Shown here piece after piece: positions 23,828 to 26,800 of a DNA stretch of 64,000 bases. This DNA is from an uncultured Verrucomicrobiota bacterium (GTDB lineage Bacteria; Auribacterota; JABMQX01): positions 64,661-128,660 of the forward strand of contig CAYZXL010000006.1 in NCBI GenBank assembly GCA_964482435.1, given 5' to 3'. The translations under genes were made by a program, and so were the position numbers. The notes under the pieces are model-generated. The model worked only from the letters and a program-made list of their open reading frames with translations, ran no database searches and was not told the origin of the DNA. Positions within the stretch are counted from its first letter, which is position 1; each line of letters starts with the position of its first letter.

Positions 23828-26800
23828 CTACGGCGCCATCACCCTGTAATAGCGCTTCTTGACGCCGGAAACATCCTCACTGGTCCAGCTGGTGGCCGTT
23901 GTGGGCCAGGTGCCGGGAGCGTTTGCCCATGTCCCGCTCACCAGGTCATCCCTCTGCTGCACCGTGTACTGGCCGCCTCCGAAGGCCGTCCAGCTCAAAG
24001 ACACCGCGTTTCCAACCTTGCCGATGTTAGGTTTCGGCGTCGGGCGAACAACCCTTTCGCCAGAGAGCTGAACCTGGTCAATAGCGAACCAGTAATCCCA
24101 CTTGGCGTCGTAGAAATGCCAGCTCAGCCTGATCTTCCTCCCGCCATATGCAGAAAGGTCCAACAGCTCAGGGCTGCTGTCGGTGCCAGTGGTGGTCGTC
24201 CTGTCCCAGCGACGCAGGTTGACCCAGTTGCCCCATACTCCGTTCTCGAAGACCTGAATGCCCACCTCCGCAACCTGGAGATGGTCAAGGTCCTCATATG
24301 CACGGTAGTTCTTGTTGAAGCTCAGCCTCAGCTTCATGTGGTTGGTGCAGTCAATGTCCTCGCTGACGAGCCTTTCATCCAAAAGCGCATCCGGGGCAAG
24401 GTCGCTGTCGGTAATCATGTACTTGTCGTACATCCCGACCAGATTGGGGTCCTGGTTGTTCAGCAGCGGTCCTTCCGTGTCCCACAGCCGCCATGCCGCG
24501 TCCGCATACCCGGAGCCGTTCTCGATAGTCCAGCCACCAGCCTTCACGTCAGCGTCCGTGCTGTAGGTGTCGAAAGTGTCGGACCAGATGACCTCTCTCG
24601 TCGGAGGCGTCCAGCCGAAACCGACACCAATCTTGTCGAAATTGAACACATCCTGGTCGGGGATTGGTCCCTGGGCTTCGACCCTGAGGAAATGTTCACC
24701 GGTGTCTTTCTCTTCGAACTGGTCGAAAACGACGTACGTGTACAACTGCCACTGCCCGGTGGGGAAGGTGGAGAAGGTCGCAGCTCCGACCGGAGCCTCG
24801 TCCCAATAGGCCGCGATGGTAGCCAGAGACTGCCCCGTCGCAACTCGGAAAACGAGCTTTATCCAACCCGGCTGCGTTACGTTGAACCCGTAGCGCCACC
24901 AGCTTCCCGGCCTGATCCATCCAACGTTGGTGTGGTAAACGTCAGTTGTGCCGTAGTCGAGGACGGTCTCGATCCCAACCGCATCAAGCGGCCGGTACGT
25001 ATTCGTACCTGTTTTGTTCGGATGCCAGAAGTCGTACTGTTGCGGTGTGCCTATGTCGGTCGCCGACGGAGCTTCAATTGCGGGTATTGCCGTCCCTTTC
25101 ACCCACGGATACATCCCTCCGCCGAAGTTGAAATCTTCCGCTTCCCTGATCGTCATCGCCGGAAGCGCCGCCTCCGCCGTCGGCTCAGAGGCAGGACCTT
25201 CGGCTCCGACTGCGTTAAACGCCGATATTTTGTAACTGTAAGTGTTTCCGGAACTGACCGAGGTGTCCATGTAAGTGGTTCCGCTCAACGTGGCGATGAG
25301 CTCCCACGAGCCACTGTTAACGCTCCGGTAAACGTTGTAGCCCGCGACCCCTTCCTGCCCGGGGGCGCTCCAGCTCAGGTGAGTCACGAGGAGCATCTCC
25401 GCATCCACGTTCACTGGCGCGGAAGGTAGCTCGTAAATCATCTGATCGCCGCCGACGGGCTGGTTGGTGACCAAGCCGTACGACAGCGTTCCCGAGAATC
25501 CGACAGTCCCGGCCTGCGACGCCGGAACGCCAAGAGAGTAGGAAAGAACCCGGCTCGTAACCTGGGCGCCGCTGAAGGTCCACGTGATGAACCCACCGGC
25601 CGCCGTGCCGCCCGGCGAGACAGAAACAACCGTGAAATCGCCCGCGGGGATTTGCTCCCTGAGCGTGACGCTGCTCGGAGGCGTCCCCGGTTCGACGTGG
25701 ACGTATATCTCGCCGTTGACGTTCGTCCCCGCCTGATAGCTCGTCGGGAGAACGCGCGCCGTCTTCACCGGAGTGGGCGGGTAGGCCGTGATTGCCAAGA
25801 TATTGAACCTGTTGTCAGCGCTTGGCGCCCCAATTGTGCTGTCGGGGTCGCTCTCCATGAAGACGATGTCGGTCAGCGTCCTGTTGGTCTGCGCCGCGCC
25901 AAACTCAAACGCGAACAGGCCAAAGTCGGAGGTTGCTGTACCGGTTGCCCGCATCATCCCACCGATGGCGAGCGTTAACGGCGCTGGCGGCGTCCTCGGC
26001 GGAGAACCCAGATACCAGTCCTGCGAAAGGAGCAGGAACTCCTGCGTGGAAAGGTCGTTATAGACAAGCTGAACCTTCAGCTTGTCGGTTGCGCTTCCGC
26101 CGTAGCCGTTGCCGGCGCCGGTCAGGAATCGCAGCCTCTCGAACACGCCCTGCTGACCGGCCAAAGAGAACGTCGTGTCGCCATCGTCCAAAAAGACGGA
26201 AAACATGTTGACGGCGTCGAAGTCACCCAACTGGAAGTCCTGAACTTTCTTGTCAGAGGGGAGTCCCGGCCAGCCGCTGAACCCGTTCTCGATGAGGCAG
26301 TCTCCCCCATTGTCGAAGCCGTCTCCGGGCTGAGTTCCCACCGCGAGGCTCCGGATTCCATCGCGGTTGAAGATGCTGGTCATGTCTAACTTCCTCGCTT
26401 CGATACCACCATCGCGATCGAGGACCAGTATATTCAGCGTCGCCGTCGCGCTGTGCTGCCCCGCGCCATTGTCCACCGTGAACTCAAACGTCAGCGTTGT
26501 GTCCACAAAGACCGGCACTGCCCGGAACGTGGTGTTCGCCTGAGTGTCGTTGGCTATGTTCACTGTCGGCCCTGCTATCTGCTTCCACTTGAAGTTCATG
26601 CCGTGGACTGTTCCCCCGCCTACGAGATGAGCCTCTGCTCCCTCCTGGACCACCGTGTCTGTTCCTGCCGTACTGATGATCACGGCGTCGGCGTCAACCA
26701 CCGTTATGACGACAGGGGCTGAGGAGCTGCGCGACTGGCTGTCCGTTACCGTCAACCGGAAAACGAAATCCGTATTCCCGATGATTATCGGCGGGCCGGA

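Follow-up and report, generated by a model that had tools for sequence, protein, structure and literature searches.

A short fibronectin type III-like module at the extreme C-terminus of unrelated exported proteins in Verrucomicrobiota-type bacteria

Bacterial sorting systems that act on a C-terminal signal include the C-terminal domains (CTDs) of type IX secretion systems (T9SS), PEP-CTERM/exosortase and GlyGly-CTERM/rhombosortase. The PPC domain (PF04151), a beta-sandwich of about 70 amino acids that closes secreted proteins C-terminally, either alone or in tandem, is thought to aid secretion and is often removed. A further group, the choice-of-anchor domains, presumably owes its NCBI name to the position of these domains ahead of C-terminal anchors that vary with the lineage. 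To our knowledge, the placement of the very large sets of adhesins, lectins and polysaccharide-active proteins on the outer membrane or outside it in the Planctomycetes-Verrucomicrobia-Chlamydiae group, especially in Verrucomicrobiota, is poorly understood. In this study a 64,000-nucleotide stretch of an uncultured Verrucomicrobiota bacterium (contig CAYZXL010000006.1, positions 64,661 to 128,660; hereafter the window) was analysed for a module of about 75 amino acids. A sequence-only reading of the window had proposed this module as a sorting or anchoring signal common to five secreted proteins. Translation confirmed that exactly five open reading frames (ORFs) carry it: the paralogues G1 and G2, a giant protein with lamin-tail (LTD) and CotH domains, a 439-amino-acid beta-helix protein and a giant beta-helix protein (the PbH1 giant). 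As had been proposed, the copy lies at the extreme C-terminus in the first four and internally in the PbH1 giant, and all five translations start with signal-peptide-like segments. Our analysis indicates that in Verrucomicrobiota-type bacteria this module is the C-terminal end-piece of Sec-exported proteins of cell-surface type. The fold class, fibronectin type III (FN3), is known; the large, unannotated family of modules is new.

A profile of the five window sequences was searched against 1.84 billion protein cluster representatives (50% identity clusters). A cut-off of E <= 1e-3 yielded 4,429 representatives, and the stricter E <= 1e-10 left 162. The five copies belong to one family, since their profile recovers these representatives outside the window. 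Positions within proteins were counted in a local re-scan of the best 149 of the 4,429 representatives, ranked by total score. This run of the five-copy hidden Markov model (HMM) on public databases, which the sequence-only reading had suggested, revealed clear C-terminal enrichment: in 126 of the 149 proteins at most 8 amino acids separate the last copy from the C-terminus, and a motif of the [FY][FY]R[VIL] type closes 128 of them. Among these 128 proteins, the tail past the motif is 3-5 amino acids in 117 and exactly 4 amino acids in 80, and proline is the final residue in 77. Where a protein has a single copy (50 proteins), that copy is found at the very end in 41 and directly ahead of a conserved extension, the same as in the PbH1 giant, in seven. 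Stop-bounded ORFs of 44 fetched genomic loci, which are independent of gene calls, showed a terminal module in 52 of 57 cases; the loci were fetched by the terminal motif, and therefore only about 15 additional matches among the 57 ORFs are independent. A second homologue search added 115 new short proteins, 113 of which end in the motif. Homologue searches with the module itself yielded only short fragments named 'hypothetical protein'.

Terminal and internal copies share the core motifs, and comparison of the two groups revealed a stricter RFYR motif in terminal copies (R69 0.92 against 0.72; Y71 0.89 against 0.59). When pairs of proteins with homology detected beyond the module were excluded, the best match was a terminal copy for 39 of 87 terminal copies and for 44 of 212 internal copies (odds ratio 3.1, p = 5e-5). 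Judged by these sequence comparisons, terminal copies are a distinguishable subtype. Cysteines at profile positions 19 and 60 occur in about 30% of internal tandem copies, where the residue pattern suggests a likely disulfide. In terminal copies neither position has cysteine as one of its two commonest residues, and D61 is present instead.

The proteins that carry the module are diverse. The passenger parts of 46 full-length representatives contain 48 Pfam families, all of extracellular type, including beta-helix, Big_9, MBG, cadherin-like, Ig, PKD, LamG, lectin and LTD families. In the window alone, Pfam distinguishes four architectures. The unrelated passengers that bear a single terminal copy range from 250 to more than 1,600 amino acids. 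A crude hydrophobicity test detected a signal-peptide-like start in 57 of 83 full-length representatives. Organism names on the relatives are limited to Limisphaerales, Verrucomicrobiia and Verrucomicrobiota metagenome-assembled genomes (MAGs). The module occurs in many copies per genome, with five copies in the 64 kb of the window. A scan of one genome per species with an alignment of the subtype seen in the 439-amino-acid protein (the ENP subtype), which covers that subtype alone and biases the loci towards terminal copies, found it in about six MAGs, with about 20 loci in JAUYEE01 and about 12 in CAZFAP01.

Scans of the whole window proteins with Pfam-A and NCBIfam annotated the passengers and left the module without annotation, and the five isolated modules matched no family of either collection at E <= 10; 58 diverse copies of the module likewise led to no family. 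Consistent with the sequence-only reading, no curated Pfam or NCBIfam model covers the module. No fn3 match was found for the five window copies at E <= 10 or for 58 diverse copies at E <= 1, and weak Tissue_fac matches in Pfam appeared in just four of the 58. Likewise, Por_Secre_tail (PF18962) and TIGR04183/TIGR04131 gave no match at E <= 10 in Pfam and NCBIfam. The absence of PEP-CTERM, LPXTG and T9SS signatures that had been noted by eye was found in the Pfam and NCBIfam scans as well, and all three identities were rejected at the sequence level. A C-terminal hydrophobic helix is not present in the window proteins, which end in ...YYRVMAP, ...FYRVMGQ, ...FYKVEVYY, ...FYRILENP and ...ILRRPRTTESP. 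The net charge of the module varies from +5 to -5 across the five copies, and therefore an anchor of the basic-tail type is not supported. A literature search on the motif, choice-of-anchor proteins, Verrucomicrobia sorting signals and Kiritimatiellota found nothing relevant.

Structure prediction placed the module in a known fold class. The AlphaFold model of the G2 copy, for which 23 aligned sequences were used, has a mean confidence (pLDDT) of 84.8 and six strands, the last of which is LFYRVM. The fold is a beta-sandwich that can be superposed on solved FN3 domains. Searched against PDB sequences, a profile of the 58 diverse copies matched the neuroglian FN3 domain at E 4.8e-5, a weak but specific match, and the FN3con design at 1.3e-3. 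Positions 2-64 of this profile align to strands A-E of the neuroglian domain, leaving just 13 positions, and tandem copies follow each other at a period of 70-99 amino acids, which is shorter than canonical FN3. The strand list, the profile lengths and this period point to a shortened FN3 domain without a G strand, its last strand being F. The module is thus predicted to belong to the FN3 superfamily as a remote, short member with about 75 residues and six strands, ending on the F strand (R-F-Y-R-V). It agrees with domains of the Pfam fn3 clan at core positions, namely the strand B tryptophan, the strand C tyrosine and the strand F tyrosine. It differs from them in length (about 75 against 90-100 amino acids), in the predicted six strands with an F-strand end and no G strand, in its own RFYR[VIL] motif and in its extreme C-terminal bias. 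The consensus drawn earlier from the window copies was essentially correct, as the strand B tryptophan, the strand C tyrosine, the DL...W element and FYR are nearly invariant; its 'GTWP' element, however, is restricted to the subtype formed by G1, G2 and the PbH1 giant.

The position of the module relative to choice-of-anchor Q domains (NF041518) is a further observation. In the 439-amino-acid protein and the PbH1 giant, the module starts no more than a few residues from where a choice-of-anchor Q match stops; in the PbH1 giant it abuts amino acid 1101. An NCBIfam scan found no such domain in G1, G2 or the LTD-CotH protein. A 616-amino-acid beta-helix protein at 15182-17032 (minus strand) has an N-terminal hydrophobic segment and ends in ...NNYRLQDASPCRGAGQNGVDMGYAYPESP, followed by the stop. 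It looks like a natural tag-less paralogue, as by eye it stops near the point where, in its relatives, a segment like choice-of-anchor Q gives way to the module. This resemblance lacks confirmation, since NCBIfam did not call choice-of-anchor Q in the protein at E <= 0.01. The module of the PbH1 giant ends in ...QRFYRVES and runs on into an extension of about 118 residues with the pattern ...PVGFVKVF...SVPL..AD.RLNG..GC.GD...WKW...TQ.Y...GKWWD...FWILRR...SP. The same extension recurs behind FYRVES-type modules in eight representatives (P0042, P0049, P0058, P0073, P0145, P0146, P0147 and P0106). Pfam and NCBIfam gave no match for it, a homologue search returned nothing, and the AlphaFold model of module plus extension was unusable (pLDDT 40).

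The module is overwhelmingly the last domain of its proteins and belongs to no known family; a handle for surface retention or secretion is therefore the best single reading, and we hold it tentatively. The same two results bear on the alternative named in the sequence-only reading, that a known Ig-like domain is scattered at random positions: the module is FN3-like, yet the idea of a C-terminal tag was not refuted. Binding, the partner, a role in transport and cleavage are parts of this reading that we infer. The passenger would be exported by way of its N-terminal signal peptide, after which the terminal module would bind a common partner in the envelope, either a protein or a surface glycan. 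Binding might occur by beta-strand addition at the open edge of the F strand, which is a plausible docking site. Unrelated passengers could in this way be held on, or moved across, the outer membrane, and upstream tandem copies would serve as a stalk or would add avidity. A more specific proposal, which we consider unlikely, is that the module is the recognition domain of an undescribed Verrucomicrobiota system for sorting or surface display, in which a strand from an outer-membrane or scaffold partner would complete the open F-strand edge and so route dozens of unrelated passengers per genome to the surface of the cell. Such docking would be comparable to donor-strand or dockerin-like docking.

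The proposal of a sorting or anchoring tag is partly supported: the C-terminal bias, the diverse passengers, the occurrence in several copies per genome, the absence from curated models and the choice-of-anchor Q slot favour it, but the FN3-like fold, the tandem copies and the lack of a conserved neighbour weaken it, and the analogy with such a tag is a reasonable hypothesis. The following points weigh against a surface-retention or secretion handle. The module is a remote FN3-superfamily beta-sandwich and no new fold, and its missing G strand is indicated by the strand list of one AlphaFold model and by lengths, not by coordinates. A total of 99 of the 149 proteins carry 2-8 back-to-back copies, which is atypical for a pure sorting signal. 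One protein of 5,597 amino acids has 31 matched stretches, long internal arrays among them, which fits a structural repeat too; the last copy recovered in it by the local re-scan stops 1,945 amino acids before the end. The FYRVxLxP ending is also present on internal copies, and therefore the short tail marks the domain boundary rather than a signal dependent on a free C-terminus. The positional counts describe the best-scoring representatives, and the signal for a positional subtype could reflect undetected homology of whole proteins. The ENP subtype is largely one expanded family of beta-helix paralogues, and copy numbers therefore overstate independent acquisition of the tag. Clustering of the ORFs of the 44 loci revealed no conserved neighbour, partner, processing or transport gene; the large clusters were the beta-helix paralogue family and one group of 36 ORFs without the module. 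From one example checked, which overlaps a beta-helix gene on the other strand, this group appears to consist of antisense shadow ORFs of the beta-helix family.

Several of these points would be expected if the module were a passive structural repeat, that is, a lineage-specific short FN3 spacer or stalk in large adhesin-like proteins, with a C-terminal bias that arose from array building or duplication and not from recognition. The FN3-like fold with its weak sequence link to FN3, the back-to-back spacing of the tandem copies, long internal arrays such as that of P0023, the core motifs common to internal and terminal copies and the lack of a partner gene in the neighbour clustering all agree with this explanation. 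A spacer, however, is expected between domains and not as the last one, whereas single copies stand mostly at the very end or just ahead of the extension. These single terminal copies sit on unrelated passengers, and terminal copies form a stricter, distinguishable subtype. We regard a passive repeat as somewhat unlikely. The single terminal copies and the range of passengers can also be compared with a carbohydrate- or ligand-binding module, in which case a beta-sandwich like that of carbohydrate-binding modules (CBMs) would target enzymes and lectins to a substrate polysaccharide or to a glycan on the surface of the cell itself. CBMs are terminal, often tandem beta-sandwiches on diverse passengers, the passengers found here include lectin, CBM, beta-helix (possibly lyase) and F5_F8 domains, and weak profile matches to glucanase and chitosanase chains were found in PDB (E 0.005-0.03). 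The additional conserved loop tryptophans of the G1/G2/PbH1 subtype (GTWP...W) would suit ligand binding, but they are specific to that subtype, and the aromatic residues that are invariant across the family occupy FN3 core positions. Many passengers, moreover, are Ig, cadherin or MBG adhesin arrays without an enzyme, no CBM family matched the module, and terminal placement of about 85% is stricter than would be expected of CBM families. A binding module of this kind is quite doubtful, but like the passive repeat it is a serious rival of the handle.

A true homologue of the T9SS C-terminal domain, or of another known sorting signal, is very improbable and is largely refuted at the level of sequence. 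The module agrees with such signals in general size, in the Ig-like sandwich and in its extreme C-terminal position. Against this, no match to Por_Secre_tail, T9SS type A or B, PEP-CTERM, LPXTG or any NCBIfam sorting signal was obtained at E <= 10, the window proteins lack the C-terminal hydrophobic helix, the named relatives are Verrucomicrobiota and not Bacteroidota, and tandem copies are common.

Positions of the five proteins, their modules and the adjoining domains are given in Table 1. The module interval noted earlier in G1, 23828-24040, corresponds to the final 70 codons and the stop of this gene on the minus strand, and the HMM match is a bit longer. The C-terminus of G1 reads ...SLSWTAFGGGQYTVQQRDDLVSGTWANAPGTWP...KKRYYRVMAP, followed by the stop. 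In all five ORFs the end motif of the module is (R)FYR[VI], and in the four terminal copies only 3-4 residues lie between this motif and the stop. The window HMM, derived from the five copies, was applied to the entire window translated in six frames, where the copies score domain E values of 2e-25 to 2e-35; these scores are circular, because all five are training sequences. A sixth copy was not found, the next-best match in this six-frame run having E = 0.2. Pairwise identity of the other four copies to that of G1 is 59, 27, 27 and 39%. G1, G2 and the PbH1 giant have copies that clearly belong to a single subtype, while those of the LTD-CotH and 439-amino-acid proteins are remote. The close relatives of the 439-amino-acid protein all share its ending.

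Table 1. Positions in the 64-kb window of the five module-bearing proteins, their modules and adjoining domains.
Feature	Position	Strand	Details
G1 ORF	23828..28729	-	1633 aa; lectin / K319L-PKD / F5_F8 passenger (Pfam)
G1 C-terminal module	23828..24061	-	HMM domain aa 1566-1641 of the stop-to-stop frame (training sequence); translation
G2 ORF	29458..34443	-	1661 aa; G1 paralogue
G2 C-terminal module	29458..29676	-	ends ...KKLFYRVMGQ, then stop
LTD-CotH-TSP3 giant ORF	35295..41135	+	1946 aa; Pfam LTD, CBM_4_9, CotH, TSP3_bac
LTD-CotH-TSP3 giant, divergent C-terminal module	40899..41135	+	ends ...GKAFYKVEVYY, stop; translation, HMM (training sequence)
439-aa beta-helix protein ORF	52849..54168	-	translation
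439-aa beta-helix protein, C-terminal module ('ENP' subtype)	52849..53076	-	ends ...RRFYRILENP, stop; translation, HMM (training sequence)
439-aa beta-helix protein, choice-of-anchor Q (NF041518)	53089..53241	-	aa 310-360; E 9.3e-10, 38.6 bits against a cut-off of 25
PbH1 giant ORF	59042..62917	-	1291 aa; translation
PbH1 giant, internal module ('GTWP' subtype, as G1/G2)	59402..59620	-	aa ~1100-1172; translation, HMM (training sequence)
PbH1 giant, choice-of-anchor Q (NF041518)	59615..59746	-	aa 1058-1101; 68.8 bits, two stretches; whole-protein E 3.4e-19
PbH1 giant, extension behind the module	59042..59401	-	~118 aa; ends ...FWILRRPRTTESP, stop

The paralogues G1 and G2 lie next to each other on the same strand (23828-34443, minus), and each is about 1,650 amino acids long. 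Their C-terminal halves have in common an FN3-like 'YNVYRSVN' domain, a CBM-like region, a MAM/LamG-like 'WHFY.AKWDYWFA' region and the module; they differ N-terminally, a legume-lectin domain being found only in G1. In the protein at 35295-41135 (plus strand), three lamin-tail domains, CBM_4_9 and a domain like CotH kinase occur together with an extended series of bacterial TSP3 calcium-binding repeats, and these repeats partially match the Amuc_1099 pilus-like and CglD gliding-motility models. Between two module genes, at 55151-58435 (minus strand), lies a gene for a signal-peptide protein of 1094 amino acids with TPR repeats and C-terminal FG-GAP/beta-propeller repeats; nothing connects it with the module. 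Many long antisense ORFs lie opposite the giant genes in the window and in the fetched loci, for example a 571-amino-acid ORF at 23714..25429 (plus strand), and they look like shadow ORFs of GC-rich repetitive genes and not like real genes. The window is otherwise ordinary chromosome, with SMC, fatty-acid synthesis genes and a translation/RNA-processing cluster whose translations read as polynucleotide phosphorylase, riboflavin kinase, TruB, RbfA, IF-2 and NusA.

Two metagenome contigs (L001 and L002, 8805-10408) carry a gene with an FGE-sulfatase domain that is followed, after 42 bp, by a 135-amino-acid ORF. This ORF carries a segment like the end of choice-of-anchor Q (...VDIGAYEF...) and then an ENP-type module. 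A frameshift or a mis-call has probably divided a single gene into these two ORFs, in which case the FGE-sulfatase would be a passenger other than a beta-helix for the ENP subtype.

A family that is large (at least 4,429 clusters), unannotated, almost always terminal and attached to unrelated passengers has the traits that earlier exposed the sorting systems named at the outset. With a clean family model, thousands of giant proteins now labelled 'hypothetical' could be annotated better, and such a model would be a direct handle towards the partner machinery; if the module were merely a structural variant of FN3, the gain would be limited to better annotation. With choice-of-anchor Q proteins there is a direct connection, as this group includes two of the five window proteins, in which the module stands right behind the domain, and ENP-subtype relatives keep an upstream ...VDMGAYEF... 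segment; the module is, however, none of the anchors that NCBIfam already models. Dockerin, SLH and other non-covalent anchors resemble it in being terminal modules on unrelated passengers that use a common surface partner, some with repeats for avidity. Their folds and motifs are unrelated to the module, no Pfam dockerin or SLH match was found in the window proteins, and no cohesin-like partner was identified. The T9SS C-terminal domain (TIGR04183 / PF18962) is likewise an Ig-like sandwich of 70-100 amino acids at the extreme C-terminus of unrelated signal-peptide passengers, with many copies per genome, which is the behaviour that the sequence-only reading alluded to. The module differs from it in sequence, to which no match was found, and in lineage, being carried by MAGs of Verrucomicrobiota type; T9SS genes were not seen within the DNA covered, namely the 64-kb window and the flanks of the loci, not whole genomes. 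Tandem copies of the module are also common, with two or more copies in 99 of 149 proteins; its last copy is terminal in 126 of the 149. It shows no sequence match to the PPC domain, has other motifs and is found mostly on non-peptidase passengers, but of the systems compared PPC is its closest behavioural analogue that tolerates tandem copies.

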